DNA of 64,000 nt from Candidatus Saccharimonadales bacterium. GTDB lineage: Bacteria; Patescibacteriota; Saccharimonadia; Saccharimonadales; 2-12-FULL-41-12. The position numbers and the translations under genes are program-made. This document shows positions 7,892 to 55,690 of the stretch, one piece after another; within the stretch, counting starts at the first letter, position 1; the number at the start of each line of letters is the position of its first letter. Location: the NCBI GenBank assembly GCA_025451045.1, contig JANWLD010000001.1, positions 5,812-69,811 on the forward strand, read 5' to 3'. The notes under the pieces were generated by a model. It did no database searches and was not told the DNA's origin. It saw only the letters and a list, made by a program, of their open reading frames with translations.

Positions 7892-9106
7892 TTAAGGGGA
7901 CGTACCTTCATAGACTATCGATTGCAATCCGAAATTAACGTCATTAACACCGGGTCTCCAGTAGTCGTTATCCCAGGTTATCTTCAGCGTAGAAGTAGGC
8001 TGGTTAGCGAACTGCAAGTCCGAAAACGTATATGTATGAAGCGTCTTGCAGTTATCGGTCGAATAAGAAGGCATGTCCGCGGTTGTTGAGCCGCCCGGGT
8101 AATCAATCTTTATATGATAACTATACCCCGGCGGCGGCGGGAAACAGGTACCCCCCGCCGGCGCATTGAAATAGTTTAAGGTAATGTTATAGGTACCAGA
8201 AGTAGGGATTAATGAATAGGTAACATTTGCCGGGTTTCCGGGCGGTGTTACCCCATTACCGGGTACCGTAGTGTCGGCACCGCCGGAAAGCCAGAAGACT
8301 TCGTTAGTAAAATCCGGGTCTGTTTTAAAGCAGTCGCCAACGCAGTTCAGATAAGCCTGTGCGCTTCCGGTAATACTAATACTGCAGGTAAGCGCATCAG
8401 GGGGTCCAGCCGGAGCGCTAAATAATGCCGGGCAATGTATGCAGGTATTAGTTGATATGTCCAGGTATCTATTAGCAGCGCAATTCGGCGGTGGATCGGC
8501 TTCGGAACCATACCCGGCGTCATATGAATCATCGTTACTGGCATCGCCGTCGCTCGGATGACAGCCCGGGTCATCTATATCTACCTTACTGTCGCCATCA
8601 TTATCCACGTCGTCGGCACAGACCGGATCAGTGCCAATAGTAGCCAAAGACGCCGCCGGAAGCTTATAGGACAAAGCTAGCGTCTGCTGTGGCGCGCTAG
8701 TAAGCGAGCTCCACGTGGTAGTAACGGTATAAGTATTGGTCGTAGTGTCGTACACTATGGCCGTTTTATAACGTCCCTGCCCGTTGTCCTTTGTGCCTTT
8801 GTTGCATTTAGTAGCGAGTGTTGTGGGCTTAGGCGGAATACCGCTAGCCGGGGTGCCGTCATCAAAACATTTATAGTGCGAGCCTTCCCAGTCCGTTGTA
8901 GGCTGTAAATAATTGCGGAGGAGTTCCAGTTGTTGTTCGCTTATTTTTTGTGCCTCTCCGCGCTCCTGAGACTGCTGGATGTATTGGCTGCTTCGGTTAG
9001 ACAGCGAATATGAAATGGTCAAAACCAAGCTTATAATAGCAATGGAAATCAAAACCTCGACTATCGTGTCGCCTTCTGAATTTTTTAGCAGTTTTTTTAT
9101 GGACAT
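7892..9106 (-). CDS. large type IV minor pilin with Asp-rich Ca-binding-like insert
   Basis: ATG 9106 gives MSIKKLLKNSEGD|TIVEVLISIAIISLVL (pilin-like N-terminus). The ORF-track start 9199 lies inside the upstream gene. Contains DDVDNDGDSKVDIDD. Confidence 0.7.
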   Translation of the reverse strand: MSIKKLLKNSEGDTIVEVLISIAIISLVLTISYSLSNRSSQYIQQSQERGEAQKISEQQLELLRNYLQPTTDWEGSHYKCFDDGTPASGIPPKPTTLATKCNKGTKDNGQGRYKTAIVYDTTTNTYTVTTTWSSLTSAPQQTLALSYKLPAASLATIGTDPVCADDVDNDGDSKVDIDDPGCHPSDGDASNDDSYDAGYGSEADPPPNCAANRYLDISTNTCIHCPALFSAPAGPPDALTCSISITGSAQAYLNCVGDCFKTDPDFTNEVFWLSGGADTTVPGNGVTPPGNPANVTYSLIPTSGTYNITLNYFNAPAGGTCFPPPPGYSYHIKIDYPGGSTTADMPSYSTDNCKTLHTYTFSDLQFANQPTSTLKITWDNDYWRPGVNDVNFGLQSIVYEGTSP

Positions 9107-9921
9107 GGCGTATCTATCTTTACATTTACTATAGTCTGGCTGCTGCCAGTTGCCAATTCGATTACCGCTTCGCGGTTTGAACCTTGCTCTTGCAAGCAAA
9201 TCCGTATGCCCTTGCTTGCTCTGGTTACACTGGTGGCATTTAATGCCGCGACCCTGTTAATAAAAGTAGCGCTTGAGGTATTTGTGGTGTTGCCTGTTAC
9301 AACCGCCAAGCTTGCCCGGCTGTTTAGCCCCGTGTTGATTGCCGAGCCGCCGGACACAGTAGATACTATGGCTAGCCCGGATATATTGCCGTTAGTGTCA
9401 GCACGCTTGACAGCATTAATTTGAACCCCTGAAACCAAAGAAGCATGTTCAATCAAATTACTAAGCTCGCTTAGAGCGTGCGGTTGCGCTTCTGTTATGC
9501 TGGTTACCGGCTGGTCTGATCCGGCTACGGCGCGGCGGCCGACTACCGTGTAGATATCCATTTTTGACTTATTGGCAGCGCTTGATGAGGCGTTCGGAGC
9601 GAACTGGATGGCCCGGCCGACGAAAATACAATCCGTGTTGGTTCCCTGGTTGGCAGAAACAGTTGTATTTATTGTAGGTGCCCCAGTGCCGCTAACCGAA
9701 CAGGAAAAGCCGTTAGTAGTCGGATAAAACCCTGTCTCTACATCATTTAATACATCTTGGATGTTTTGGGCGAAGGTGTTGACGCTTTCAGTAAATTGTG
9801 TCCGGCGGTTTTGCTGGTTATAAGTTACCAATGCGCTGATAAACAATGCGGAGCTGACAGTTAGGACAATAATCACTTCTATAATCGTATAACCGCCTCT
9901 AGTGTGGCGATAGTGGTTCAT
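9097..9921 (-). CDS. type IV minor pilin
   Basis: 274 aa. MNHYRHTRGG|YTIIEVIIVLTVSSALF prepilin signature. Confidence 0.7.
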   Translation of the reverse strand: MNHYRHTRGGYTIIEVIIVLTVSSALFISALVTYNQQNRRTQFTESVNTFAQNIQDVLNDVETGFYPTTNGFSCSVSGTGAPTINTTVSANQGTNTDCIFVGRAIQFAPNASSSAANKSKMDIYTVVGRRAVAGSDQPVTSITEAQPHALSELSNLIEHASLVSGVQINAVKRADTNGNISGLAIVSTVSGGSAINTGLNSRASLAVVTGNTTNTSSATFINRVAALNATSVTRASKGIRICLQEQGSNREAVIELATGSSQTIVNVKIDTPCP

Positions 9922-9928
9922 AAGCCAA

Positions 9929-9937
9929 ATTATAGCA
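9929..9937 (-). promoter_or_regulatory. extended -10 box TGCTATAAT upstream of the minor-pilin genes
   Basis: Minus-strand TGCTATAAT ends 7 nt before ATG 9921 and there is no SD. This implies a leaderless or near-leaderless start. Confidence 0.35.
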
Positions 9938-9951
9938 TAAGGGTAATAGAT

Positions 9952-9979
9952 GTATGGGGTATAAAGTATTAGGTATGAA
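9952..9979. repeat. heptad array, GGTA flavour
   Basis: GTATGGG GTATAAA GTATTAG GTATGAA: GTA at 9952, 9959, 9966, 9973. Confidence 0.6.
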
Positions 9980-9981
9980 GC

Positions 9982-9998
9982 CAGCGGCTTCGCCGCTG
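9982..9998. other. GC-rich hairpin downstream of pilD
   Basis: CAGCGGC-TTC-GCCGCTG, 7-bp stem. No U-tract on the pilD strand. Confidence 0.4.
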
Positions 9999-10025
9999 TT
10001 CTTCTGTCGTTTCATACTATATACG

Positions 10026-10862
10026 TCATACGTTATACAAGCTCAGGTAGTGGTTAATTATTGAAGTGCCGAATAATTGGACGATTATTGCGGCCATTAT
10101 CAGAAACGGCCCGAAAGGAATCCGTGATTTAGGACCGATTTTTTTGGTAAACATCATTGGCAGGGAGTAAACCGTTCCCAGCAGTGACGCCAAAAACAGC
10201 ATCAACAGGGCCGGCCAGGGGCCGCCGACGAGCAACCCGAGCAAAAAGCCAAGCTTAACATCGCCGCCGCCTATCCAAGAGCCTTTTGAGACCTGAAATA
10301 GCACATAAAACAGCCCGCCGCCTATCAACATCCCAATGATACTACTCTTTATAATATCGGTGTCCTGAGCGGCTAACGCACTGATGACTACACCTAGTAT
10401 CGCAATAAATATTAGAGGAAAAATTACCTTATTCGGTAATATCATATATTTTATATCATATATGGTTAGTATCATGAAGCCAGCTACAAACACCAGCCAA
10501 AGGGCAAAAGCAGCTGCATTTTGGCCCGATGACAGGTCATACGGCCAAAACAAGTAGGAAAACACGAACAGTAGCACCGTAGAGGCCTCTACCAGCGGAT
10601 ATTGCGGACTGATAGGCTGATTACAATACCGGCATTTTCCGGCTAGTATCAGCCAGCTAAATAGCGGTATCAGGTCTTTGGCGCCCAACATATGGCCGCA
10701 GTGCGGACAAAGGCTTCGGCCGCTTCTGATGGAATATTTAGCCCTTTCGCTGTTAGCCGCCTTGGGATGTTCTTCCCGCCAGTGCAAACGATACACAAAA
10801 GCATTTATAAAACTTCCCAGGCACAAACCAAGAATAACCAAGCCGATTATTATCATTAGCAA
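10026..10862 (-). CDS. pilD: prepilin peptidase / N-methyltransferase (A24 family)
   Basis: 278 aa polytopic membrane protein. Zn-finger CPHCGH...CRYC and catalytic-Asp motif GGGDVKL. Confidence 0.9.
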   Translation of the reverse strand: MLMIIIGLVILGLCLGSFINAFVYRLHWREEHPKAANSERAKYSIRSGRSLCPHCGHMLGAKDLIPLFSWLILAGKCRYCNQPISPQYPLVEASTVLLFVFSYLFWPYDLSSGQNAAAFALWLVFVAGFMILTIYDIKYMILPNKVIFPLIFIAILGVVISALAAQDTDIIKSSIIGMLIGGGLFYVLFQVSKGSWIGGGDVKLGFLLGLLVGGPWPALLMLFLASLLGTVYSLPMMFTKKIGPKSRIPFGPFLIMAAIIVQLFGTSIINHYLSLYNV

Positions 10863-10874
10863 TATGGTATCACA

Positions 10875-10907
10875 CCAAAAGAAAACGGGGCTTATTGCCC
10901 CGCTTTT
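10875..10907 (-). terminator. intrinsic terminator/attenuator after pilA
   Basis: Minus strand reads AAAGCGGGGC-AATAA-GCCCCGTTT followed by TTTTCTTTT. Located between the pilA stop (10925) and the pilD start (10862). Confidence 0.6.
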
Positions 10908-10924
10908 CTAAGAAACCGTAGATG

Positions 10925-11377
10925 TTAACCCTGCTGGCAAGTCGATGTGAAAGTACCTGCACCAGTTTCAGTTCCATAGACCACTACTACAGCTCTTGCC
11001 GGACCTCCTTGTGCCACGGTACCGTTACAAGTCGCCCCCGTGTAAACTTGGGCGTGGTCGGTAGTTTCTGCAGTTGTAGCCATAGCAGCTAAGTTCCAGT
11101 TACCGGCTCCTGCCGCTGGTGCATTGGCATAGTATCCAACGTTAGTAACTGCATCAAGCTGGGCTGCTGTAGGTAAAGTCCCGTTGTTATTTGAAGCATA
11201 CTCAGCCACCCCTCCTAGCAAAGATGATATATCATTCTTCCTTTGCGTGTTACGGCTGTTTCTTTGAAGCGCCGGTACCGCTAAGAATACTATAAGCAAG
11301 ATAAGCCCTGCTATTGCTAACACAATCAAGACTTCGATGATTGTGAAGCCTTTTTGTTGTTTTTGTAATTTTTTCAT
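10925..11377 (-). CDS. pilA: major type IV pilin
   Basis: 150 aa. MKKLQKQQKG|FTIIEVLIVLAIAGLILLIVFLAVPALQ. Strong promoter and RBS (GGTGAGGA) upstream, terminator downstream. Confidence 0.85.
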   Translation of the reverse strand: MKKLQKQQKGFTIIEVLIVLAIAGLILLIVFLAVPALQRNSRNTQRKNDISSLLGGVAEYASNNNGTLPTAAQLDAVTNVGYYANAPAAGAGNWNLAAMATTAETTDHAQVYTGATCNGTVAQGGPARAVVVVYGTETGAGTFTSTCQQG

Positions 11378-11418
11378 TATTTCCTCACCCTTTATACATT
11401 TAACTTCTTATGCTTTGA

Positions 11419-11447
11419 ATATTACTGCATGAAAATACTAAATGCAA
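11419..11447 (-). promoter_or_regulatory. sigma70-like promoter TTGCAT-17-TAATAT (pilA)
   Basis: -35 TTGCAT at 11447-11442, 17-nt spacer, -10 TAATAT at 11424-11419. The same hexamer pair occurs upstream of two MPEQ-family genes. Confidence 0.55.
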
Positions 11448-11455
11448 GCTTTTTT

Positions 11456-12676
11456 TTATTTAACTATGGTCTGGCCTGCCAAACCGTAGATTGGCAGAAG
11501 TACGGCCGCTACTACAATAAACGCGACTACACCTAATATAACCATCAGAACCGGCTCGATTATCGTTGAAATCGCCTTTATCTGGTTATCGACCTCTTTT
11601 TCGTAATAATCGGCAGTTTTTTCCAGCATATCTTCCAAAGCGCCCGATTCCTCCCCTATTCTAAGCATATTAGGTACCAGTACTAAAAAGTTCGGGTCGC
11701 CTTCCAGCGCAGTGGCCAGGGATTTGCCGCCCTTTACTTTCTCGATAGCGTTTTTAATCGACCTCTCTATATGCACATTGTTAATGGCCCGGCTGACCAC
11801 TTCCAGCATCTTGATAAGCGGTATTCCGCTGGAAACCAGCGTTGAACCGGTGCGCGCAAAACGAGCCATATAAACTTTCATAAACAACGGTCCAATCGGC
11901 GGGACGGTCATCTTGAGCTTGTCGATAACCTGTTTGCCCGGACCGGTACGGGCATAACGGGTAGTCGCGATAACAGCAATAATTATGAGTATTAATACCA
12001 CCCACCAGTACTTCGTGACAAAATGTGAAACACCTAAAAGAGCTTTGGTTATAAAAGGTAGGTTAGCGCCAGGGATGTCCTTGTAGATTACTTCCACTTG
12101 CGGCATGACTTTTACCACCATGAAGCCCACGACTCCGCCCATTACCAAAAGTACTATCGCCGGATAAGCCATAGCGCCGCGGATTTTACCGGCAATTTCG
12201 GCGTCCTTTTCCTGTTGGTTGGCGATGCGCTCCAAGGCGTTATCTAAAGTTCCAGACACTTCTCCAGCGGCAACCATGTTGATGTAAACATCATTAAAAA
12301 CCCTTGGATGCTGAGATAAAGCTTCAGACAAGGCTTTCCCGCCTTCTACATCGGTAATAATCTGGTTGATTACTACTTTGAACGCTTTGTTCTCGGTTTG
12401 GCTTACTACGTTGCGCAGGCTTTGGACCAAAGGCAGGCCGGCATTAATCAGCGTTGACATCTGGCGTGAAAAAATCACCTTGTCTTTGGTCGCAATACGG
12501 TTTCTGAATTTGGAAATAGGGTTAGAAGAAGGGCCAGTAAGCGGTTTTATCTCAAGAGGCGCCAAGCCTTCTTTGCGGATAAGTTTGGCGGCGGCGGCTT
12601 CGTTGTCGGCTTGTACTTCTGCTTTTATTTTTTGGCCGGTTGCCGGATCCCGCGCCGTATATGAAAAAGTTAACAC
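11456..12676 (-). CDS. pilC: type IV pilus platform protein (T2SS F family)
   Basis: 406 aa, duplicated GspF domains, 3 TM segments. GTG start with GGAGG RBS. Confidence 0.9.
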   Translation of the reverse strand: MLTFSYTARDPATGQKIKAEVQADNEAAAAKLIRKEGLAPLEIKPLTGPSSNPISKFRNRIATKDKVIFSRQMSTLINAGLPLVQSLRNVVSQTENKAFKVVINQIITDVEGGKALSEALSQHPRVFNDVYINMVAAGEVSGTLDNALERIANQQEKDAEIAGKIRGAMAYPAIVLLVMGGVVGFMVVKVMPQVEVIYKDIPGANLPFITKALLGVSHFVTKYWWVVLILIIIAVIATTRYARTGPGKQVIDKLKMTVPPIGPLFMKVYMARFARTGSTLVSSGIPLIKMLEVVSRAINNVHIERSIKNAIEKVKGGKSLATALEGDPNFLVLVPNMLRIGEESGALEDMLEKTADYYEKEVDNQIKAISTIIEPVLMVILGVVAFIVVAAVLLPIYGLAGQTIVK

Positions 12677-12695
12677 GTCGCAACCTCCGGTTGCT

Positions 12696-12768
12696 TAGGT
12701 TCTAGCGAATAGGGACTAGTGAATAGGCCAAACCCTAAAACCTCTAACCTATGACCTATGACCTTATG
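12696..12768. repeat. inverted pair of heptad arrays (TAG x5, then CCT x5)
   Basis: TAG at 12696, 12703, 12710, 12717, 12724. CCT at 12734, 12741, 12748, 12755, 12762. Followed by hairpin ATGATGT/ACATCAT at 12766-12792. Confidence 0.75.
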
Positions 12769-12793
12769 ATGTTGAGTAAAGCGAGACATCATT

Positions 12794-13876
12794 TTAGCTT
12801 CTCATTAACCTGTCTAATTCTTCTATATCTATGGCAAAGTTACGGGCTTCGTCATAAGTAATGGTACCGGCATGTATCAGGCTGACTAAAGTTTTGTCCA
12901 TGGATTGCATTCCATGTTCCGCGCCGGTTTGGATTACCGCGTCAAGCTGGTGGCTTTTGCCTTCTCGAACTATATTTCTTACGGCCGGAGTAGCTATCAG
13001 CACTTCTGCCGCCGCTATTCTGCCGCCGCCAATGGTAGGTACAAGCCGCTGGGCGCAAATGGCCATTAATATATTACTGAGCTGGGCTCGTATTTGCGGT
13101 TGCTGGTGGGGCGGGAACACGTCTATCATACGGTCAATACTCTGAGACGCGCTGTTAGTATGAAGCGTCGCGAACACAAGGTGCCCTGTTTCAGCGATAG
13201 TTATAGCCGCCGCGATAGTTTCCAAATCGCGCATTTCACCGATAAGAACCACATCGGGGTCCTGGCGCAGACTGCTACGAAGCGCGGCTGAAAACGAATA
13301 AGTGTCATAATGGACTTCACGCTGGACAACTACAGCTTTCTTGCTTTTGTGGGTGTATTCTATGGGGTCTTCAATCGTTACTATATGCGAAGGCCGCTCA
13401 CTGTTAATCTGGTCCACCAAAGCCGCCAAAGTCGTGGACTTGCCAGAGCCGGTTGGGCCGGTAACCAATACCAGTCCCCGTGGATATTCGGAAAACTTTT
13501 CTATGGTTTTGGGCAATCCCAGTTGGGCAATTGTACGGATTTCATTAGGAATTAACCTTAAAGCCGCCGCGAGGTTGCCGCGCTCATGGAAGGCATTGAC
13601 CCTGAATCGTCCAAGGTCGCCAAAAGCAAAGCTGAAATCAAATTCCTTGTCTTTGAGCAAAATCTGCTTTTGCTCATCGTCTAAAATAGCAAATATCAAC
13701 GTTTCGACGGACTCTTCTGTCAGCGCCGGCGCGCCATGGACGGCTATCAGACTGCCGTCGATCCGAAGCATTGGCGGCAAACCGACTTGAATATGCAAGT
13801 CCGAGGCGTTCTTTTTGATTACGTCTTCCAACAGTATTTCTATTTTCAGATCAGCTCCAGCCATGTTATATCCCAT
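12794..13876 (-). CDS. pilT: twitching-motility retraction ATPase
   Basis: 360 aa. Walker A GPTGSGKST, Asp box, His box ATLHTNSA, PilT-type length. Confidence 0.9.
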   Translation of the reverse strand: MGYNMAGADLKIEILLEDVIKKNASDLHIQVGLPPMLRIDGSLIAVHGAPALTEESVETLIFAILDDEQKQILLKDKEFDFSFAFGDLGRFRVNAFHERGNLAAALRLIPNEIRTIAQLGLPKTIEKFSEYPRGLVLVTGPTGSGKSTTLAALVDQINSERPSHIVTIEDPIEYTHKSKKAVVVQREVHYDTYSFSAALRSSLRQDPDVVLIGEMRDLETIAAAITIAETGHLVFATLHTNSASQSIDRMIDVFPPHQQPQIRAQLSNILMAICAQRLVPTIGGGRIAAAEVLIATPAVRNIVREGKSHQLDAVIQTGAEHGMQSMDKTLVSLIHAGTITYDEARNFAIDIEELDRLMRS

Positions 13877-13883
13877 CCTTCAT

Positions 13884-15680
13884 TTACGCGTTATCCTCCG
13901 CCGCCACGCGGTTAACTTCGGCTATTGAGGTATATCCGGCCAGTGCCTTAAGGTAACCGTCTTCTCTCATAGTTACCATGCCATTAGCTACCGCCGCTTT
14001 TTGTATTTCGGTGCTTGTGGAGTGTTTGAGTATCAGTTGTTGAATCATCTCATCCACCTGAAAGACCTCGTATAACCCCATGCGACCTTTGTACCCCCCT
14101 GGTGTCTCCGGGCTATCTTTACCCTTGAACAAAGTATAACCGTTTTGGCTGGCCAGAGGCAAGTCCGGGAAACCGAGATCTTCAATGACAGCTTTTCTTG
14201 AAGCCTCGTCCTTTGGTAGCAAGCGGCCGATACTTTTTTGTACGGCTTCCGTTTCGATAACATCGGACTGATATTTTTCCTTGCTGTCAGCTAGCCGGCG
14301 TACCAGCCGCTGGCCGATGACAGTATGCACGGTCGAGGCTATCAAAAACGGCTCTATCCCCATATCGAGCAACCGCGGCAAGATGCCCGCAGCCGAATTG
14401 GTATGAAGAGTAGAAAATACCAAGTGGCCGGTCAATGCGGCCTGTACAGCCAACGTAGCGGTTTCTTTGTCGCGGATTTCTCCAATCATTACCACATCGG
14501 GGTCCTGGCGCAGGATTGATCTTAGGCCAGACGCAAAGGTCAAGCCAACTTCCGGATTAACTTGTATCTGGTTAATCCCGTCCATTTTATATTCCACAGG
14601 GTCTTCAAGCGTAACGATATTTATAGTGTCATTTTTTATTTCCTGGATAAGCGCGTACAACGAAGTTGACTTGCCCGAGCCGGTCGGGCCGGATGTAAGT
14701 ATCATTCCGTTTGGTCTTTTAATACTTCTTCTAATGGTCCGAAGCGCGCGGCCATGATAGCCCATGTCTTCAAGCTTTAGGCTGGTGCCGGTCTTGTCCA
14801 GCAACCTGATAACAACTTGCTCCCCCCATACGACTGGCGATATAGCGATACGCAAATCAATAGCAGTATCCTGATCGATTGCCACAGTAAATCCGCCGTC
14901 TTGAGGTATTCTGTGTTCATCAATTTTTAGATTGCTCAAGATTTTTATTCGGGAAATCAATGGCGGTTCTGTGGATTTTGGAAGTTTCATTATTTCGCGC
15001 AAAACGCCGTCTATCCGACAGCGGATTTTTAGTTCATGTTCCAGCGGTTCAATATGGACGTCACTAGCGCGGTGCTTGGCGGCATATTCCAAAATAGTGG
15101 AAAGTGCCTTGCTGATTGGAGAATCTTCTACGATGGTTTTTATTTGGGTTTCAGCTTTGGTTTTGGTTTTGTCAACTAGCAGTTGCTGGACATCTATGGA
15201 GTCGCTCATTGCCTTGGCCACGTCTGCTTCTACATCGTCGGCATATTGGCGCAAGACTTGTCTTATACCTTGCTCGCTGGCTGTGTAAACTTTAATCGGG
15301 CGGTTTATCCTCTTCGCCAGATAATCCACGGCCTGGACGTTGTCCGCGTCCAACATGGCTACTACCAGCCTGCCCTTTATTTGTCCAAGCGGTACGGCCA
15401 TGTATCTTTCAGCTATTTCCTTTGGTATTACCCTTAGTAATCTTTTATCAATACGCGCGTCCATCAGGTTTACATACGGTATATGATTGACTTTCGCGAT
15501 AATCTTGGTCAAGGCTTCGTTGGGTAAATGGCCTTCCTTTACCAAAAATCCGAAAAAGGGCGTAGATGAAGTCTTGGCTTTTTCTTTAAGAACAGCCAAT
15601 TTAGCATCTGTAAGATACCCCTCTTTGACCAAGTTTTCTTCTACCATTTTCTGGCTAGCTACTGATAAAACACTACTCAT
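13884..15680 (-). CDS. pilB: type IV pilus assembly ATPase (GspE/PilB family)
   Basis: 598 aa. N-terminal GSPII-like domains, Walker A GPTGSGKST, STLHTNSAAG. ATG overlaps the stop of the upstream four-helix-bundle ORF (ATGA). Confidence 0.9.
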   Translation of the reverse strand: MSSVLSVASQKMVEENLVKEGYLTDAKLAVLKEKAKTSSTPFFGFLVKEGHLPNEALTKIIAKVNHIPYVNLMDARIDKRLLRVIPKEIAERYMAVPLGQIKGRLVVAMLDADNVQAVDYLAKRINRPIKVYTASEQGIRQVLRQYADDVEADVAKAMSDSIDVQQLLVDKTKTKAETQIKTIVEDSPISKALSTILEYAAKHRASDVHIEPLEHELKIRCRIDGVLREIMKLPKSTEPPLISRIKILSNLKIDEHRIPQDGGFTVAIDQDTAIDLRIAISPVVWGEQVVIRLLDKTGTSLKLEDMGYHGRALRTIRRSIKRPNGMILTSGPTGSGKSTSLYALIQEIKNDTINIVTLEDPVEYKMDGINQIQVNPEVGLTFASGLRSILRQDPDVVMIGEIRDKETATLAVQAALTGHLVFSTLHTNSAAGILPRLLDMGIEPFLIASTVHTVIGQRLVRRLADSKEKYQSDVIETEAVQKSIGRLLPKDEASRKAVIEDLGFPDLPLASQNGYTLFKGKDSPETPGGYKGRMGLYEVFQVDEMIQQLILKHSTSTEIQKAAVANGMVTMREDGYLKALAGYTSIAEVNRVAAEDNA

Positions 15681-16072
15681 TTGTTTTGACCTCCGTCAAA
15701 ACTAGGTTCTAGGTCATAGGTTTTAGGTTCTAGATTCTTATATAAGGAAAAAAGCATTTTCTGAATTTCCGTTAAACTGCCTATTAAATTACCGACTTCT
15801 CGCTTGTAAACATCTTGTGCAATCAATAGCTGGGTCTCGAGTTCTCCAGCTGAGCCGCGGGCTATATTTAAAAATTGCCTATACTCTTTTCTGCTATTCC
15901 TTTGATTTCCTTCGGCTATATTACTGGGTATTGAAACTGCGCATCGTTGCAATTGGCTTGATAGACCAAATTGCTCTGTTTTGGGTAGTTTGGCGGTAAA
16001 TTTATAGACATCCTTGGACAATTGAAAAGATTTCTGCCAAACAATTAAGTCTTTGTAAGAAGAAATAACCAT
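15677..16072 (-). CDS. four-helix-bundle protein (S23p / 23S rRNA intervening-sequence protein family, Avd-like)
   Basis: 131 aa. Family hallmarks LIVWQKS, SQLQRCAVSIPSNIAEG, ARGSAGELETQL. The C-terminal 15-18 aa (NLEPKTYDLEPSFDGGQNK) are read from the heptad array at 15703-15737. Confidence 0.85.
   Translation of the reverse strand: MVISSYKDLIVWQKSFQLSKDVYKFTAKLPKTEQFGLSSQLQRCAVSIPSNIAEGNQRNSRKEYRQFLNIARGSAGELETQLLIAQDVYKREVGNLIGSLTEIQKMLFSLYKNLEPKTYDLEPSFDGGQNK
15703..15737. repeat. heptad array, TAGG flavour (left bracket of the four-helix-bundle gene)
   Basis: TAG at 15703, 15710, 15717, 15724, 15731. Contains TAGGTTTTA at 15717-15725. Confidence 0.8.
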
Positions 16073-16114
16073 TAGTATTAACTATAACCTACCGTTAGCG
16101 TTGTATCCATAAAA

Positions 16115-16149
16115 CCTAACCCCTGTCCCCTACAACCTACTCCCTATTC
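16115..16149. repeat. heptad array, CCTA flavour (right bracket, inverted polarity)
   Basis: CCT at 16115, 16122, 16129, 16136, 16143. TAAAACCTA at 16110-16118 is the exact reverse complement of 15717-15725. Confidence 0.8.
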
Positions 16150-16150
16150 T

Positions 16151-16387
16151 TTAAAATGGTTGCGGATTAGTTGTGTCGCCTATCTGTATAAGCTTGGTCG
16201 GGTCTATGGCATTGTTGTTAAATACTGCCGGGTCAGGTGTTTGAAAATCCGCGTTTATTGGTTGGACAGTTTCAGCTGTAAGGTTACGTTGGCTAGCGGA
16301 AGTAAAGAATATTTTTGAAATCACCACAGAGAACACCGCCGCGAACACAGCAACTATGACAATTACCATGATGTCTTTGCGTCGCAT
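16151..16387 (-). CDS. small single-pass membrane protein (PilP position)
   Basis: 78 aa, TM IMVIVIVAVFAAVFSVVISKIFF. Start overlaps the upstream stop. The functional label comes from position only. Confidence 0.4.
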   Translation of the reverse strand: MRRKDIMVIVIVAVFAAVFSVVISKIFFTSASQRNLTAETVQPINADFQTPDPAVFNNNAIDPTKLIQIGDTTNPQPF

Positions 16388-17055
16388 TATTTCACTACCT
16401 CGCTTTTGACATTAAGGTTTTTTTCCGGCTGGAAGAAAGTTTTGGCTGTAATTGTAACTTTCAATTGCCCGCCCTGGCTTGTTAATGCAAGCTGATGTAT
16501 TTGCATCGGCCTGATTGAGCGCTCAAATAACTGCATCAATTCTTTTACTCGCTGGTCTCCGGTTGCAACTTCCACGCTGAAAGGCATTTCAACGGGTTTT
16601 GGCTCTTCCGAGGTACCTTTGGCGGATTGGCTCACTTCATCGTCATTACCGGTAATCGAAGTTATGCTGTAGTCGTGGTCTTTAAGAAGTTTTTCTATGC
16701 TGGTTGTTAGGGCCGGAAAGTCATATTTGCTTGGCAACGCATCTAGTATTATGCGCGGGTTATCCCCGTCCTTGTCGGCATCACCCTGTGGATTTCCTCC
16801 AAGTACATTGGTGGTTTCATTAGAAAACGCTTCGTAAGATGTAACTAGCTGGTCGGAAGCTGCCAAGTTATCCTTGAGGGTGTGGAGGGCTTTTTCCTTC
16901 TGCGATGAAACTTTGCTTTGGTATCTCATCTGCGAATAAAGCGCTTTGGAAGCTACTAGCGAAAATACCGCCAGAAAAGTAGCTATACCGATAGCCAAAA
17001 TTATCGTGGCATAAGCTTTGTCTATGGCCAGTTTCTTGGTTGAGAACTGCGGCAT
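16387..17055 (-). CDS. pilO: PilO-like pilus assembly protein
   Basis: 222 aa, N-terminal TM plus coiled-coil plus C-terminal domain. Contiguous with pilN/pilM (ATGA-type junctions). Confidence 0.5.
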   Translation of the reverse strand: MPQFSTKKLAIDKAYATIILAIGIATFLAVFSLVASKALYSQMRYQSKVSSQKEKALHTLKDNLAASDQLVTSYEAFSNETTNVLGGNPQGDADKDGDNPRIILDALPSKYDFPALTTSIEKLLKDHDYSITSITGNDDEVSQSAKGTSEEPKPVEMPFSVEVATGDQRVKELMQLFERSIRPMQIHQLALTSQGGQLKVTITAKTFFQPEKNLNVKSEVVK

Positions 17056-17792
17056 TAGTTACCTCCCCCTTGGTCAGGTTGTGGAACAAACAGGTTGCTA
17101 GGTTTTTCCGTTTCCGATCGGGTGGTGATTTTCTTTGGTATATTCAATTTTACTGCTTTGCCTTCGCTGTCGCCTTGCGCCAGGTTCTTTACGTTTGAGA
17201 AAATAGCCGGGTCAAAGGAAAACTGAAGTTCGTAGGTTATATCGCCCTGTCCTTGCTGGCTACCGACAGAGTTAACAGCAAATGACTGTAAGACGACGTT
17301 GCTGAACGCCTTGCCCTCGCTCGGGTTGTCGCCGGATACCTGGAAATCAGTAAACTTCAAAGTGTCGGCAAATTTATTAACCGTGCTAAGCGCGTCAGCA
17401 TTGCCCTTAATAACTATAGTGTTCGCATCAAAATCAACGTCAACATCGGAAATAGTCGCTTGCGAAGGAGTAGTTTGGACTAGATAATCAAACAGCCTGG
17501 AGCTAATCACCTTGTGTTCATGGAGCTCCGGCAAGCTGTTAAGTTGGTTTTGTATCGTCAATATTTTGTCCAAATCCTGTTTTTGTTTAAGCTCTTCCGT
17601 AGCCGACGCGATATCTTTGGTCAGTGCCGTAACATAATGCTTCTGTGAAAACCGCACATAGATAAACAGCGCGATAAAGATTACCAAAAAGAAAGCCGAG
17701 ATGATAGCCGAAAGCCCTATCATTAGGCGTTTTTGCCGCTTGGCGCGAATATAGTGAAGTTTTACGTCCGGCAGTAAGTTTAATTGCGCCAT
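17055..17792 (-). CDS. pilN: PilN-like pilus assembly protein
   Basis: 245 aa. The conserved N-terminal INLLP-type motif is present as LNLLPD, followed by a TM helix. Confidence 0.6.
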   Translation of the reverse strand: MAQLNLLPDVKLHYIRAKRQKRLMIGLSAIISAFFLVIFIALFIYVRFSQKHYVTALTKDIASATEELKQKQDLDKILTIQNQLNSLPELHEHKVISSRLFDYLVQTTPSQATISDVDVDFDANTIVIKGNADALSTVNKFADTLKFTDFQVSGDNPSEGKAFSNVVLQSFAVNSVGSQQGQGDITYELQFSFDPAIFSNVKNLAQGDSEGKAVKLNIPKKITTRSETEKPSNLFVPQPDQGGGN

Positions 17793-18832
17793 TATTCGTT
17801 TCTCTCCGCCAGTCCAACCGCTACGCTAAATGTATTTGATACGGCCATAAGTTCGTTTTGTTTCTGCTGGGGATAAGCAACCCCAGCCCACGCATTGCCG
17901 ATTTCCACCTCTATGCCAAATTTGTTAGCAATATACAGGGGAAACTCGGGCAAAGTCGAGGCCGCTCCGGACAAGACAATCCGTTCCATTTTGGCGTCCT
18001 GATACCGGCTTTGGAAGAACTTGATTGACTTGCTTATATCCGTAACCAGCAAATCAACCGTGTTGATAATCCCTTGGTAAATTTGTCCTTCTAGTTTTTC
18101 TTGGCTTAGTCCGAATTTGTAAACAAAATCTTTGGCTTGAACTTCATCTATATTAAGATTCTGGCTGGCCGCCCGGATAAAAGCTTCCGAGCCAGTTGGT
18201 ATGGAACGTGTAAGCCGGGGAATACCTTTCATAGTAATTACTATGTCGGTAGCTGTCTCCCCTACATCAACTAATAGATGGGGCGCTGTAGTTCCGGGAC
18301 GTATCAAAGACCGTGCCAAAGCCAAATTATCCGGCTCAAAGGCTATAACATTAAGGCCGATCCCTTCCAATATATCCAATCTCTTTTCAGCGAAGTCGTT
18401 CGATACGCTGGTTATTAGCACTTCAACCTTGTTAGCATCCACCGGCGAATCGCCCAAAAGGGCCCAGTCTATCTTGGACTCGGCAGGCGGCGTAGGTATA
18501 ATCGAATCCGCTTGATATTCAATAGTCTTTCCTAGCTCCGCCGGAGCCAGACGTTCAATATCAATAATGGAAGTAAAAACCCTTGATGATGGCAAGCCTA
18601 CGGCAACATCCTTGGCATGGATACCGGTAGTAGACAGAAGTTGTTTGATTGCTTGTGCGAGTTTCTGCTGGTCTGCTTTTGAGTCACTTTCGGAAGCTTT
18701 GCGTTCTATCGGGGCAGAGCCATAACGAAGAAGCTGTTTATTGCTCGGGGTGTTAGATAGTTGAACTACCCTAATACCGGTAGTACCAATATCAAGGCCA
18801 AAAAACTCATTTACCCCGCTCAATAAACTCAT
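17792..18832 (-). CDS. pilM: type IV pilus assembly ATPase-fold protein PilM
   Basis: 346 aa. Actin/FtsA-like fold start FGLDIGTTGIRVVQL. First gene of the pilMNO block. Confidence 0.85.
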   Translation of the reverse strand: MSLLSGVNEFFGLDIGTTGIRVVQLSNTPSNKQLLRYGSAPIERKASESDSKADQQKLAQAIKQLLSTTGIHAKDVAVGLPSSRVFTSIIDIERLAPAELGKTIEYQADSIIPTPPAESKIDWALLGDSPVDANKVEVLITSVSNDFAEKRLDILEGIGLNVIAFEPDNLALARSLIRPGTTAPHLLVDVGETATDIVITMKGIPRLTRSIPTGSEAFIRAASQNLNIDEVQAKDFVYKFGLSQEKLEGQIYQGIINTVDLLVTDISKSIKFFQSRYQDAKMERIVLSGAASTLPEFPLYIANKFGIEVEIGNAWAGVAYPQQKQNELMAVSNTFSVAVGLAERNE

Positions 18833-18966: not shown

Positions 18967-18977
18967 TAAGCATAATA

Positions 18978-19012
18978 AGCTACAAGCTCAAAGCTAAGAG
19001 CTGAGAGCTGAA
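18978..19012. repeat. heptad array, AGCT flavour (left bracket of the four-helix-bundle pseudogene)
   Basis: AGCT at 18978, 18985, 18992, 18999, 19006. Confidence 0.75.
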
Positions 19013-19028
19013 ATGATAAAATGTCCGG

Positions 19029-19373
19029 ATGGTTACCCAATCGTTCAAAGATCTAATCGTCTGGGAAAAATCAAATAAGCTGGCCGTGGATATTTATAAA
19101 ACCTTTTCTAGTTGCAAGGACTTTAGTTTTCGAGACCAAATACAACGAGCGTCTGTATCTATTATGAATAACATTGCCGAAGGTTATGCCCGAAGGAGTG
19201 ATGCCGCTTTCAAGAATTTTTTAAAAATTGCCAAAGGCTCAGCGGCATAAGTTGAGTCTATGCTTTTTCTAGCAGAAGAATTAGAATACATCAACAAGCT
19301 ATCCCAAGAAAAACTAACTGAGCAAACAGAAGAGGTGTCAAAACTGCTTTCCGGATTCATAAAAAAGCTCTAG
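19029..19373 (+). pseudogene. four-helix-bundle protein gene interrupted by a single in-frame TAA
   Basis: The 73-aa ORF (LIVWEKS, ASVSIMNNIAEG, AKGSAA) stops at TAA 19248-19250, exactly where the family and the intact paralog have Glu (GSAGELETQL). The same frame continues VESMLFLAEELEYINKL...KKL to TAG 19371-19373. Confidence 0.75.
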
Positions 19374-19406
19374 CTCTGGACTCTTAGCTCTCAGCTTTTA
19401 GCTAAA
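19372..19406. repeat. heptad array, AGCT flavour (right bracket, pyrimidine-rich version)
   Basis: AGCT at 19372, 19386, 19393, 19400, with GACT at 19379. Shares AGCTGAGAGCT (as reverse complement) with 18978-19012. Confidence 0.7.
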
Positions 19407-27391: not shown

Positions 27392-27419
27392 AGCTCTAAG
27401 CTTTTAGCTGTAAGCTAGG
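27392..27419. repeat. heptad array, AGCT flavour
   Basis: AGCT at 27392, 27399, 27406, 27413, between the ychF stop and ABC ATPase ATG 27427. Confidence 0.65.
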
Positions 27420-32277: not shown

Positions 32278-32305
32278 TTTCGCTCCTTTTCAGTCGCTTA
32301 GTTTA

Positions 32306-32369
32306 TAGGGGTTAGGTTTTAGGGGTTAGGTAGTTTGCTAGAACCTAGTCCCTAGCACCTTTAACCTAC
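32306..32369. repeat. inverted pair of heptad arrays (rpsR|efp junction)
   Basis: TAG at 32306, 32313, 32320, 32327. CCT at 32344, 32351, 32358, 32365. 32325-32367 is identical to 32625-32667. Confidence 0.8.
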
Positions 32370-32370
32370 T

Positions 32371-32574
32371 TTAACCATTTTGGACAAATGGAAGCAAAGC
32401 GATATGCCGAGCGCGTTTGATGGCAACAGCCAGTCTTCTTTGCTGGCTTTCTGATAGCCCTGTTTTTTTGCGAGGTTCTATCTGTCCGTATTGATTAACG
32501 TAGCGCTGCAAAGTCTTGAAATCTTTGTAGTCAAAAAATGCTACGTCTGTTCTGTGTTTAAAAATCTTCGCCAC
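32371..32574 (-). CDS. rpsR: 30S ribosomal protein S18
   Basis: 67 aa, [21 protein letters not shown] start after AAGGAGAAC. Confidence 0.9.
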
Positions 32575-32598
32575 TTATGTTCTCCTTTCAGTTGAACT

Positions 32599-32669
32599 TA
32601 GTTATTAGTTGCTAGTTGTTAGTCGTTAGGTAGTTTGCTAGAACCTAGTCCCTAGCACCTTTAACCTGT
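32599..32669. repeat. inverted pair of heptad arrays (ssb|rpsR junction)
   Basis: TAG at 32599, 32606, 32613, 32620, 32627. CCT at 32644, 32651, 32658, 32665. Confidence 0.8.
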
Positions 32670-33140
32670 TTAGAATGGGATGTCGTCGAGATTGATAGGC
32701 TCATCATCAACATCCTCAATCTTTACTTCTTTATCACTTTTTTTAGAAGCAGGCTTCTTTGGTGTCGGTTCACTGTCGTTTGACGGTTCATGTCCGCCAC
32801 CGCCTTCACCACGTCCGCCAAGAAAAGTAACGTCTTGGGCAATCACTTCAAGCTTGCTGCGTTTTTGGCCATCTTGTTCCCAACTGCGGCTTTGCAAGCG
32901 TCCGCTGACCAGCACCGGCCGGCCTTTGGTTATATATTGTGCGACCCTCTCTCCAAGTGCGGCCCATGCCACTACGTCTACAAAGTCAGTCGCTTCTTTC
33001 CATTCGCCATCTTGCCCTTTATAACTTCTGTTAAGGGCCAAACTAAAACTGCAAACACTCTGCCCGCTTGGGATTTGCCGCAGTTCAGGGTCGCGGGTTA
33101 GGTTGCCCATCAAAATTACTTGGTTAAAACTCCGTGCCAC
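32670..33140 (-). CDS. ssb: single-stranded DNA-binding protein
   Basis: 156 aa. OB fold start NQVILMGNLTRDPELR, Gly-rich linker, acidic tip DLDDIPF. GTG start. Confidence 0.9.
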   Translation of the reverse strand: MARSFNQVILMGNLTRDPELRQIPSGQSVCSFSLALNRSYKGQDGEWKEATDFVDVVAWAALGERVAQYITKGRPVLVSGRLQSRSWEQDGQKRSKLEVIAQDVTFLGGRGEGGGGHEPSNDSEPTPKKPASKKSDKEVKIEDVDDEPINLDDIPF

Positions 33141-33164
33141 TTTGTTCTCCTTTCAGTCGAACTT

Positions 33165-33241
33165 AGGTTATAGCTGCCAGGTTCTAGGTTAGAGTTGTCT
33201 TCTTTTACTATAACCTATCCACTCGAACCTGTAACCTCGAT
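33165..33241. repeat. inverted pair of heptad arrays (rpsF|ssb junction)
   Basis: AG at 33165, 33172, 33179, 33186, 33193 (AGGTT x3). AACCT at 33212, 33226, 33233. A 13-nt T-rich centre. Confidence 0.75.
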
Positions 33242-33243
33242 TA

Positions 33244-33719: not shown

Positions 33720-34148
33720 CTATGCCCTTCTGGCTTGTCTGGCTTGTCGATTATTTTTAAATCTTCTACTGTGCCGGCTTAATACAGCATCAGCCTGTCT
33801 TCTTTCTTTAGCAGTGATTCTACGCGGCATCCGAGGGAAACCAGACTCAGTTGTTTCGCTTTCAGTTGTTTCGCTTTCAGTTGTTTCGCTTAATGATACT
33901 GGGGTGTCCCTATTAGCCCTTACGATTCTTCTACTATTTAATCGACGCTTAGTTCTAGCTATTTCAGCCCCTCTCTTGCGAAGAAAATTTATAAGTTTTC
34001 CTTCATCCCATTCCAGTTCTACAGTCTTTGATTCAGAGACTTCGCCGGTCTCAGCATTAACCGTTATCCCCCCTGTAATTTCACTTAAATTAAGGATTTC
34101 ATGGGTTTCGCCAGATGGCGCCCCACCGTTATTATTTCCTAAACTCAT
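33720..34148 (-). CDS. hypothetical basic protein with ETTES x3 repeat
   Basis: 142-aa ORF with Arg/Lys-rich halves separated by SETTESETTESETTES. Confidence 0.45.
   Translation of the reverse strand: MSLGNNNGGAPSGETHEILNLSEITGGITVNAETGEVSESKTVELEWDEGKLINFLRKRGAEIARTKRRLNSRRIVRANRDTPVSLSETTESETTESETTESGFPRMPRRITAKERRQADAVLSRHSRRFKNNRQARQARRA
33847..33891. repeat. perfect 15-nt tandem repeat x3
   Basis: TCAGTTGTTTCGCTT at 33847, 33862, 33877. It encodes the ETTES repeat. Confidence 0.9.
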
Positions 34149-55648: not shown

Positions 55649-55690
55649 AGGTTATAGGTTATAGGTTATAGGTTCAAGAATAAGAATTAA
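55649..55690. repeat. tandem heptad array AGGTTAT
   Basis: AGGTTAT x3 (55649-55669), then AGGTTCA, then degenerate AGAATAA GAATTAA. Starts 8 nt upstream of the dnaG ATG. Confidence 0.85.

Follow-up and report, generated by a model that had tools for sequence, protein, structure and literature searches.

Heptanucleotide cassettes at the junctions of a Saccharibacteria rpsF-ssb-rpsR-efp operon: probable ORF-less relatives of an IVS-like element with a PF05635 gene

The 64-kb stretch of DNA analysed here (hereafter the window), part of contig JANWLD010000001.1 from a Candidatus Saccharimonadales bacterium, has a G+C content of 45% and carries on its minus strand the genes rpsF, ssb, rpsR and efp, followed by a gene for a TlyA-like methyltransferase. 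The best relatives of its SSB protein belong to uncultured Saccharibacteria, with 83% identity or less, which places the window in a TM7/Patescibacteria genome. The four genes are separated by spacers of 103 nt (rpsF-ssb), 95 nt (ssb-rpsR) and 93 nt (rpsR-efp), which abut the stop codon of one gene and the start codon of the next, and contain no open reading frame (ORF). Each is filled by a cassette made of two inverted arrays of heptanucleotide units, followed by a leader. Coordinates, which refer to the window unless a relative is named, are reported in Table 1.

On the coding strand, the three spacers are organised in the same way: stop codon, 5′ arm of (U)AGGnnn units, loop of 11 to 17 nt, 3′ arm of nnnCCUA or CUAnnnn units, short leader and start codon. 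All have at least three phased 7-nt units per arm, with the G-rich arm placed 5′ on either strand. The phasing described in an initial annotation of this DNA was found again at every position. TAG recurs at 32599/606/613/620/627 in the ssb-rpsR spacer and at 32306/313/320/327 in the rpsR-efp spacer, and AGG or AG at 33165/172/179/186/193 in the rpsF-ssb spacer. In the facing arrays, CCT is placed at 32644/651/658/665 and 32344/351/358/365, and AACCT at 33212/226/233 (rpsF-ssb), the left and right arrays being of inverted polarity in all three cases. The 43-nt identity reported between the ssb-rpsR and rpsR-efp spacers is exact and lies within a wider match of 71 nt at 87%. It suggests a recent duplication, spread or gene conversion between neighbouring junctions, and the three cassettes of this operon probably spread locally. 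The leaders are conserved, as claimed, and read TAAGTTCGACTGAAAGGAGAACAAAGTG, TAAGTTCAACTGAAAGGAGAACATAAGTG and TAAGCGACTGAAAAGGAGCGAAAATG (with the start codon, TAAGTTCGACTGAAAGGAGAAC..GTG, TAAGTTCAACTGAAAGGAGAAC..GTG and TAAGCGACTGAAAAGGAGCG..ATG).

The excess of period 7 predicted in the initial annotation was looked for in the 64-kb window, and was strong compared to other periods. Nine long runs of self-match were counted at lag 7, against 0 or 1 at each of lags 5, 6, 8, 9, 10, 11 and 13, and 3 at lag 14, the double of 7. Similarly, 18 arrays with at least three phased copies of a 4-mer were found at period 7, and 0, 2, 1 and 1 at periods 5, 8, 10 and 11, respectively. By Tandem Repeats Finder and phase scans, the arrays consist of head-to-tail intergenic 7-nt units in many copies, as do heptameric simple sequence repeats (SSRs) and short tandemly repeated repetitive sequences (STRRs), with units that are degenerate rather than perfect.

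The arrays are not confined to the ribosomal-protein operon. A type IV pilus cluster (9097-18832), encoding a pilM-like protein, two T2SSE ATPases, a T2SSF platform protein, a prepilin peptidase and a pilin-like protein, is the second operon of the window with heptad cassettes at its junctions. An ORF-less cassette lies there between pilT-like and pilC-like genes, and another cassette, of a third unit class, is built around a GC-rich hairpin next to the prepilin peptidase gene, the 3′ end of which (ORF 10026-10862) is overlapped by the last heptads. In this operon, a hairpin containing a Shine-Dalgarno (SD) sequence follows the cassette wherever a gene start follows. Arrays of AGGTTAT or AGCT-core units devoid of a partner array are present at 55649, 27392, 33663 and 5212. 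The proposal of a dispersed repeat family is borne out by the recurrence of this architecture, in the window and in relatives (see below); a specific tie to the ribosomal-protein operon is not, given these other locations and the lack of arrays in most relatives.

The key to the family was a link already drawn in the initial annotation, between the rpsR-efp spacer and the brackets of a four-helix-bundle gene. TAGGTTTTA, common to both, is found in the window only at 32313, 15717 and, as reverse complement, 16110, and the last two copies correspond to the two brackets of this gene. The encoded protein matches PF05635 (23S_rRNA_IVP, E = 1.5e-37) and TIGR02436 (E = 1.2e-36), and, among solved structures, its closest homologues are 2GSC and 2RLD, both of which were deposited with five chains. 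Gene and inverted arrays together form a full-size element. Its ORF lacks a stop codon where one is usual, around residue 115-120; it passes through its own 3′ heptad array (..NLEPKTYDLEPSFDGGQNK; 15677-15745), and its end overlaps the start of the pilB-like gene. The possibility that the protein is the Avd component of a diversity-generating retroelement was rejected, as the resemblance is weak and sub-threshold (24 bits for a cut-off of 80), and the defence models of PADLOC gave no match for it. A second full-size element is decaying: its PF05635 pseudogene is interrupted by a nonsense codon, past which homology continues. The unit classes around these two genes, AGGT/ACCT and AGCT, are those of the ORF-less cassettes of the window. 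A tblastn search of the window and of 80 Saccharibacteria loci used for comparison (1.33 Mb together) detected three further PF05635 genes, all located in ssb-rpsR or rpsR-efp spacers and bracketed by inverted heptads: GATT/AATC in L036, TAGA/TCTA in L021 (a pseudogene) and TTGGCTA.../...CAGCCAA in L069. Inverted heptad brackets were present for 5 of the 5 PF05635 genes in this 1.33 Mb of sequence.

The association of gene and arrays extends across phyla. A tblastn search against PLSDB produced 32 plasmid records, mostly from cyanobacteria and Riemerella, ten of which were inspected. In 8-9 of these 10 loci (cyanobacteria, Bacteroidota), inverted heptamer arrays were tight against the PF05635 gene, between cas genes or between nrdB and nrdA for instance (Table 1). 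Relative to the host operon, the gene may point either way (e.g. L081, L085), as expected of a symmetric element. A further 121 loci came from metagenomes and viral genomes, of which 102 had full 200-nt flanks. Period-7 arrays were found upstream of the PF05635 gene in 67 of the 102 (66%) and downstream in 45 (44%), for a background of about 3%. Both sides carried arrays in 36 loci, and in 35 of these 36 the pair consisted of inverted complements. Periods 5, 6, 9, 10 and 11 gave 0 to 4 loci in the same set; period-8 inverted arrays flank a minority of genes (about 5-10 of the L091-L211 loci, and both sides in 5 of 102). When array positions were recorded over 117 loci, the first 100 nt contained 75 arrays upstream (64% of loci) and 51 downstream, the next bin 11 and 4, and more distant bins about 1-4 per 100 nt (~3%). 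The upstream arm is G-rich and C-poor, with TAGGTTG, TAGGGTT and TAGTGGT as common units, and the downstream array starts at a median of 6 nt past the stop codon. Units were identical at 90% protein identity or more, and their resemblance fell to background below some 70%. ORF-less inverted-heptad hairpins were also seen beside some PF05635 genes (e.g. L103, L107).

Forty-one of these loci are viral contigs (L171-L211, IMG/VR) encoding PF05635 relatives, many with flanking heptamer arrays, such as TAGGTTG in L173-L175; the element is therefore also resident in phage genomes. Our literature search, outside which lay most subscription journals, found no paper with both the PF05635 family and heptamer repeats, and their association is apparently unreported.

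The same junctions were compared in the 80 Saccharibacteria loci. As expected from the initial annotation, spacers of this kind are not usual for these genes, which are most often contiguous or separated by other inserts. Lengths of the three junctions follow a bimodal distribution, with about 40% of junctions contiguous (37 nt or less, e.g. TAA-GGAGAATT-ATG) and the others of about 40 to 1200 nt. Cassettes of the same architecture and different units were found at the same junctions in scattered lineages (Table 1), and 6 of 8 such cassettes fold as ladders (z from -2.1 to -4.2). No cassette is present in the relatives closest to the window (L001-L005, L016, L038); the feature was therefore gained and lost, not conserved. 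An orthologous conserved regulator was rejected on two grounds, the bimodal junction lengths and the scatter of cassette-bearing lineages on a four-protein tree. Many of the long spacers of relatives hold unrelated content, namely a promoter-like element with a hairpin, dispersed structured elements or small genes.

On the mRNA, the arms of each spacer are predicted by RNAfold to form a long hairpin made of 4-5 bp helices separated by symmetric internal loops. As initially noted, complementarity between the arms is only partial; on the coding strand, folding gave z-scores of -2.9, -1.4 and -3.1 for the rpsF-ssb, ssb-rpsR and rpsR-efp spacers, the last one being the clearest ladder. The opposite strand folded slightly less well (z = -2.0, -0.8 and -1.1), a difference that weakly favours a structure acting at the RNA level, on the sense transcript. 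Directly 3′ of each long hairpin, the minimum free energy (MFE) fold contains a small hairpin enclosing the SD sequence. Among 13 leaders from the window and its relatives, 42 of 52 cells of the outer stem of this small hairpin were paired, compared to 33.7 +/- 2.0 when the 3′ partners were shuffled (0 of 5000 shuffles reached 42). Compensatory pairs were GUUC/GAAC, AUUC/GAAU, UCUC/GAGA, CUC/GAG, ACUC/GAGU and GC/GC. As the sample is small and some of its sequences are related, this covariation is supportive rather than conclusive. The leader CGAC-N0-2-GAAAGGAG has 13 occurrences in the 1.33 Mb, 10 of them directly after a cassette. As for transcription signals, TTGACT-17-TACAAT, upstream of rpsF, matches a promoter well; within the three spacers, a sigma-70 scan gave a single weak promoter-like site (rpsF-ssb), no better than in shuffled sequences, and no terminator-like site was found.

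Because the same inverted heptad arrays bracket PF05635 genes in the full-size form, we propose, with moderate confidence, that each spacer is an ORF-less copy of a selfish insertion element similar to the intervening sequences (IVSs) of 23S rRNA. In this element, two arrays of usually 4-5 heptanucleotide units each face one another in inverted orientation; on either strand, the 5′ arm is rich in G, with nTAGnnn as a frequent unit, and the 3′ arm is its complement. No PF05635/TIGR02436 gene lies between the arrays of the three spacers, and with loops of 11-17 nt these are therefore ORF-less forms, whose membership in the PF05635-associated family rests on anatomy and comparison. Among the possibilities listed in the initial annotation, the footprint of a small mobile cassette comes closest to this evidence. 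The element has colonised at least the rpsF-ssb-rpsR-efp and type IV pilus operons. Once transcribed, the arms would pair into a long hairpin, with helices of about 5 bp alternating with small internal loops, and the second hairpin directly 3′ would hold the SD sequence of the next gene, which could therefore still be translated independently. By analogy with the IVS stems cut by RNase III, the heptad stem may act in the mRNA as a processing or stabilising hairpin that separates cistrons; this property and the private SD hairpin would together explain that essential operons tolerate the insert. ORF-less copies presumably arose when the ORF of gene-carrying ones decayed. Comparison thus shows the anatomy, the kinship of the cassettes, the association of gene and arrays across phyla, and patchy gain and loss among relatives, whereas RNase III-type processing, or binding by a pentameric protein (see below), is inferred.

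Several points weigh against this interpretation. The ssb-rpsR hairpin is weak because its 3′ arm has decayed to CUAnnnn, and its CTA keeps the 7-nt phase even where pairing is lost, so that pairing alone does not explain the periodicity. The three cassettes of the ribosomal-protein operon share a conserved leader that other cassettes of the window lack, and part of the pattern may therefore be operon-specific. About a third of the PF05635 genes have no array by the criteria used. ORF-less hairpins could be the primary structure, into which the gene inserted later. No mechanism of mobility is evident: there is no transposase, inspection revealed no clear target-site duplication, and we know of no catalytic activity for the four-helix-bundle protein. 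Lastly, no signature motif of RNase III (rnc) was found in the window or the 80 loci, which is uninformative given the small part of each genome sampled.

One of the closest known systems is the 23S rRNA IVS. IVSs with this gene have inverted-repeat borders, a stem cut by RNase III and a decaying ORF (PMC4990558), and 23S_rRNA_IVP genes have also been described in rRNA insertions of the candidate phyla radiation (PMC11270868) and between cas genes (PMC3936711). With the IVSs of Leptospira and Coxiella (S23p/PF05635 ORF), the cassettes share the cargo family, which is present in their full-size sibling, inverted repeats forming a terminal stem, as in the MFE hairpins of the spacers, the existence of ORF-less and ORF-decaying versions, and tolerance inside essential transcripts. 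They differ by their host, which is the rpsF-ssb-rpsR-efp mRNA and not helix 9, 25 or 45 of 23S rRNA (no rRNA was found by Rfam in the window), and by their arms, which are tandem heptamer arrays with phased mismatches, whereas in Coxiella the stem is an almost perfect helix of 28 bp. An ORF is also lacking in the three spacers, and excision by RNase III is suggested here by analogy.

Heptameric SSRs are over-represented in many bacteria, and Xanthomonas contains 70-75 convergent GGGAATC array pairs (PMC4692102); the TAACTGA arrays of Beggiatoaceae, cyanobacteria and Bacteroidetes immediately precede start codons, some of them in ribosomal-protein operons (PMC4679880). Neither paper mentions the four-helix-bundle gene. 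Common traits with the present arrays are intergenic tandem 7-mers, often placed before starts or between operon genes, a lineage-specific unit, the convergent inverted pairs of Xanthomonas, and host phyla rich in four-helix-bundle genes. Here, however, the units are degenerate (a core of 4-5 nt and 2-3 free positions) and the arrays short (4-5 units), and earlier reports treated the repeats as SSRs, G-quadruplexes or binding sites, unconnected to PF05635. One relative, L039, contains at 15636-15696 a nine-unit TAACTnA array close to these TAACTGA repeats.

Other comparisons are more distant. Phage T7 RNase III sites are also irregular looped hairpins at successive cistron junctions, with downstream genes keeping their own ribosome-binding site, but they are individually conserved and their cleavage is demonstrated, whereas the present structures have repetitive arms and are gained and lost between relatives. 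Repetitive extragenic palindromes (REPs), bacterial interspersed mosaic elements (BIMEs) and MITEs (miniature inverted-repeat transposable elements) are likewise dispersed imperfect palindromes inside operons, which can stabilise the upstream mRNA, and non-autonomous ORF-less copies exist alongside gene-carrying ones. In the present case, no RAYT or transposase and no signature of terminal inverted repeats with target-site duplication were seen. Unlike REPs or MITEs, there is no family-wide consensus, because units differ by locus; only the two neighbouring cassettes mentioned above share sequence. Like the tracks of HutP (UAG every 7 nt) and TRAP, the arrays present NAG triplets at fixed spacing, for which a homo-oligomeric ring would be a plausible reader. 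The attenuator of this type considered in the initial annotation is not supported: the track is paired with a complementary array, its core varies by locus (AGGT, AGCT, GTAT), it lies between cistrons and not in a leader, and no terminator or antiterminator follows. No HutP or TRAP gene was identified.

On a wider scale, PF05635 genes and inverted heptanucleotide arrays might constitute a single, unrecognised class of element spread across phyla. Its pentamer would read the repeats, or help to generate them, with one unit per subunit; its ORF-less remnants would make up much of the heptamer excess (cyanobacterial STRRs, Xanthomonas GGGAATC pairs, TAACTGA arrays), and the same logic would underlie the IVSs that fragment 23S rRNA. 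We put this forward tentatively, as a possibility rather than an expectation.

Among alternative explanations, the arrays may be a binding track for the element's own homopentameric PF05635 protein, one heptad per subunit on RNA or single-stranded DNA, the ORF-less cassettes being acted on in trans. TRAP and HutP read phased triplets, and Avd, a related protein, binds nucleic acid together with reverse transcriptase. The two five-chain structures and the description of XCC0516 as a homopentamer (PMC4990558) point in the same direction. Pentamer binding would fit the number of units per arm, typically ~4.3-4.4, and a unit whose core is conserved and whose 2-3 other positions are free, as expected of a recognition site; AG is present in 45 of 58 upstream consensus units and TAG in 22, and the ORF-less unit classes of the window match those around its two PF05635 genes. 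On the other hand, unit number varies widely, from 3 to more than 8, and the window lacks a cognate gene for the GTAT/ATAC units of the third class. The loss of unit resemblance below some 70% protein identity is equally predicted by descent alone, and since nothing but decay with divergence is seen, covariation of unit and protein cannot separate recognition from descent. We consider this explanation rather unlikely.

Alternatively, the arrays could be a neutral by-product of polymerase slippage in intergenic DNA, found near PF05635 genes where DNA is slack. Perfect and evidently young arrays do exist, such as (AGGTTAT)x3.7 at 55649, or (GCTCTGG)x4 at 62097-62124, inside a minus-strand ORF (61830-63500) where it encodes ..QSPEPRAQS..; this last in-frame expansion (three extra units = 21 nt) suggests that heptamer expansion is active in this genome. 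Fast unit turnover, the patchy distribution among relatives, and the general excess of heptamer SSRs, for which slippage has been hypothesised (PMC4692102), also agree with such an origin. Yet slippage leaves unexplained the obligatory inverted partner (35 of 36 loci with arrays on both sides have complementary pairs), a polarity that does not vary (G-rich arm 5′), the pattern of conserved core and variable spacer, and the proximity to one gene family, with arrays concentrated in the adjacent 100 nt. This origin appears improbable.

A role as translational insulator, in which TAG/TAA phased at 7 nt in the 5′ arm (7 mod 3 = 1) would stop ribosomes in every frame, and the hairpin and private SD hairpin would reset initiation and allow independent expression of rpsF, ssb, rpsR and efp, is very improbable. 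Stops in all six frames, claimed for all three spacers, are indeed there, and in two of them the minimum of 3 stops per frame was reached by 0 of 2000 composition-matched shuffles; in the rpsF-ssb spacer, the minimum is 1, as in 40% of shuffles, so that this spacer is not stop-enriched. The SD-holding hairpin after each cassette, and the tight, coupling-type junctions of cassette-free relatives, would suit an insulator. Nevertheless, upstream genes are already ended by proper stop codons, many cassettes have stop-free units (ACAGT, GTAT, AGGG, CATTTA), and arrays flank PF05635 genes in either orientation with respect to the host operon. Finally, a conserved cis-regulatory RNA of the S6-SSB-S18 operon, for example an autoregulatory leader bound by S6:S18 or SSB, would suit the location and the recurrence of the CGAC-GAAAGGAG leader at ssb and rpsR starts of scattered relatives, but is largely refuted and scarcely tenable, as the spacers have no relevant Rfam match (at the gathering threshold or up to E = 10), most relatives have no cassette or unrelated inserts, cassettes cannot be aligned between genomes, and the same ones are found both in the pilus operon and next to PF05635 genes. 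We conclude that the spacers are not a regulator of ribosomal-protein genes; they combine known kinds, IVS-like elements and heptamer arrays, in a new way.

Other features of these operons deserve mention. A different conserved element precedes ssb by ~80-100 nt in L008, L011, L013, L030, L032, L046, L063 and others, and is absent from the window; it comprises, in order, a promoter-like CTTGACG...TAC(A)AT, a hairpin of GGACATAGTTCC type whose stem covaries, and AAGGAGG, and may be an internal ssb promoter with a leader hairpin. A dispersed element of ~70-110 nt, GGAAAAGAGCAGCCGG...GATGAGAAAAACCGTAGGTTTGTCTCAT, is found in either orientation in operon junctions of several Saccharibacteria; its appearance suggests either a small mobile element or a structured RNA. 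At the start of the ssb-rpsR or ssb-efp spacer of L015, L032, L045, L046, L073 and L080, a structured-looking element recurs, GGCTGCACATTCTGGGC..GCCTGCGTCAAAA..CACTGTAT..ATACAGCTCAAA..TTTGTGCTCGG; its 13-nt core is present in 33 of 81 sequences (80 loci and the window), a count that such a short core may inflate. At least 17 relatives (e.g. L026, L027, L031, L075) have a member of a ~110-aa gene family between rpsR and efp, with tandem paralogues, up to three copies, in L018, L046, L051 and L064; the window has none. Just upstream of rpsF, a 142-aa ORF (33720-34148), the product of which has no Pfam match, contains a perfect 15-nt x3 repeat (33847-33891) encoding SETTE x3.

Table 1. Genes, cassettes, arrays and predicted hairpins (positions in the window unless a relative is named; units given as 5′ arm/3′ arm).
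Feature	Positions	Strand	Details
rpsF	33627-33244	-	
ssb	33140-32670	-	
rpsR	32574-32371	-	
efp	32277-31711	-	a TlyA-like methyltransferase gene follows
rpsF-ssb spacer	33141-33243	-	ORF-less heptad cassette and leader; repeats, fold
ssb-rpsR spacer	32575-32669	-	ORF-less heptad cassette and leader, 3′ arm decayed to CTAnnnn units; repeats, fold
rpsR-efp spacer	32278-32370	-	ORF-less heptad cassette and leader; fold
43-nt identical stretch	32325-32367 and 32625-32667		exact identity
rpsF-ssb long hairpin	33237-33165	-	5′ arm AGGTTnn, 3′ arm nnAACCT; MFE -25.5 kcal/mol, z = -2.9
ssb-rpsR hairpin	32666-32600	-	-17.6 kcal/mol, z = -1.4
rpsR-efp ladder hairpin	32369-32305	-	helices 5, 4, 5, 5 bp; loops 4x4, 2x2, 2x2; -27.6 kcal/mol, z = -3.1
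SD hairpin upstream of ssb	33144-33162	-	GUUC-GA-CU-GAA-AG-GA-GAAC; MFE fold and covariation
SD hairpin, ssb-rpsR spacer	32597-32579	-	MFE fold
SD hairpin, rpsR-efp spacer	32297-32282	-	MFE fold
Full-size element	15680-16150	-	5′ TAGGnnn array ~16146-16085; PF05635/TIGR02436 gene 16072-15680; 3′ AACCTAn array 15741-15699
SD hairpin of full-size element, before pilB	15702-15683	-	fold
Second full-size element, decaying	18977-19403	+	AAGCTnn array 18977-19009; PF05635 pseudogene 19029-19250; AGCT array 19366-19403
ORF-less cassette between pilT-like and pilC-like genes	12677-12793	-	TAGGTnn/CCTAnnn units; then SD hairpin 12694-12680
Cassette of third unit class around GC-rich hairpin	9922-10038	-	GTATnnn x4 / ATACnnn x4; between prepilin peptidase gene and next gene
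Perfect (AGGTTAT) x3.7 array	55649-55674	+	no partner array; upstream of dnaG
AGCT-core heptad array	27392-27416	+	no partner array; between ychF and next gene
Cassette in relative L026			AGGTT/AACCT
Cassettes in relative L079			ACAGT/ACTGT and TAGAAT/ATTCTA
Cassette in relative L039			CATTTA/TAAATG
Cassette in relative L066			AGGG/CCCT
Cassette in relative L035			AGGT/ACCT
Cassette in relative L053			present
Plasmid locus, Nostoc edaphicum			(GTAGGGA)x8 / (TCCCTAC)x4; between nrdB and nrdA
Plasmid locus, Anabaena 90			GGTGACA / TGTCACC; between cas6 and cas4
Plasmid locus, Calothrix			GGGTGTA / TACACCC
Plasmid locus, Picosynechococcus			GGAGATA / TATCTCC; between cas10 and cmr3
Plasmid locus, Geminocystis			AAGGGAA / TTCCCTT
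Plasmid locus, Stanieria			GGCAGAA / CCTTCTG
Plasmid locus, Riemerella			CAAGGTT / AACCTTG
GGAAAAGAGCAGCCGG...GATGAGAAAAACCGTAGGTTTGTCTCAT element in relatives	L015 1572; L017 2595; L028 10759; L055 10560; L067 1201; L077 11890		
Reverse-complement-like copies of this element	L004, L014, L030, L069		in spacers

Heptamer tandem repeats have reportedly been known since 1990, as STRRs, and work of 2007 is said to have recognised them as an over-represented SSR class in many bacteria; to our knowledge, they have no accepted origin or function. PF05635/TIGR02436, for its part, is a very abundant family of unknown function, present inside rRNA genes and cas operons, and it is found here in housekeeping operons. 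Treating the two as one physical unit joins two long-standing loose ends, and offers a testable model for both: an IVS-like element, in which the repeat arms would be the stem and the encoded pentamer a candidate reader. This link is a possible explanation for the abundance of 7-base repeats in bacterial genomes. It also implies that even the ~1 Mb genomes of Saccharibacteria carry an actively turning-over element in their essential operons, with consequences for operon annotation and for the reading of intergenic "regulatory" motifs.

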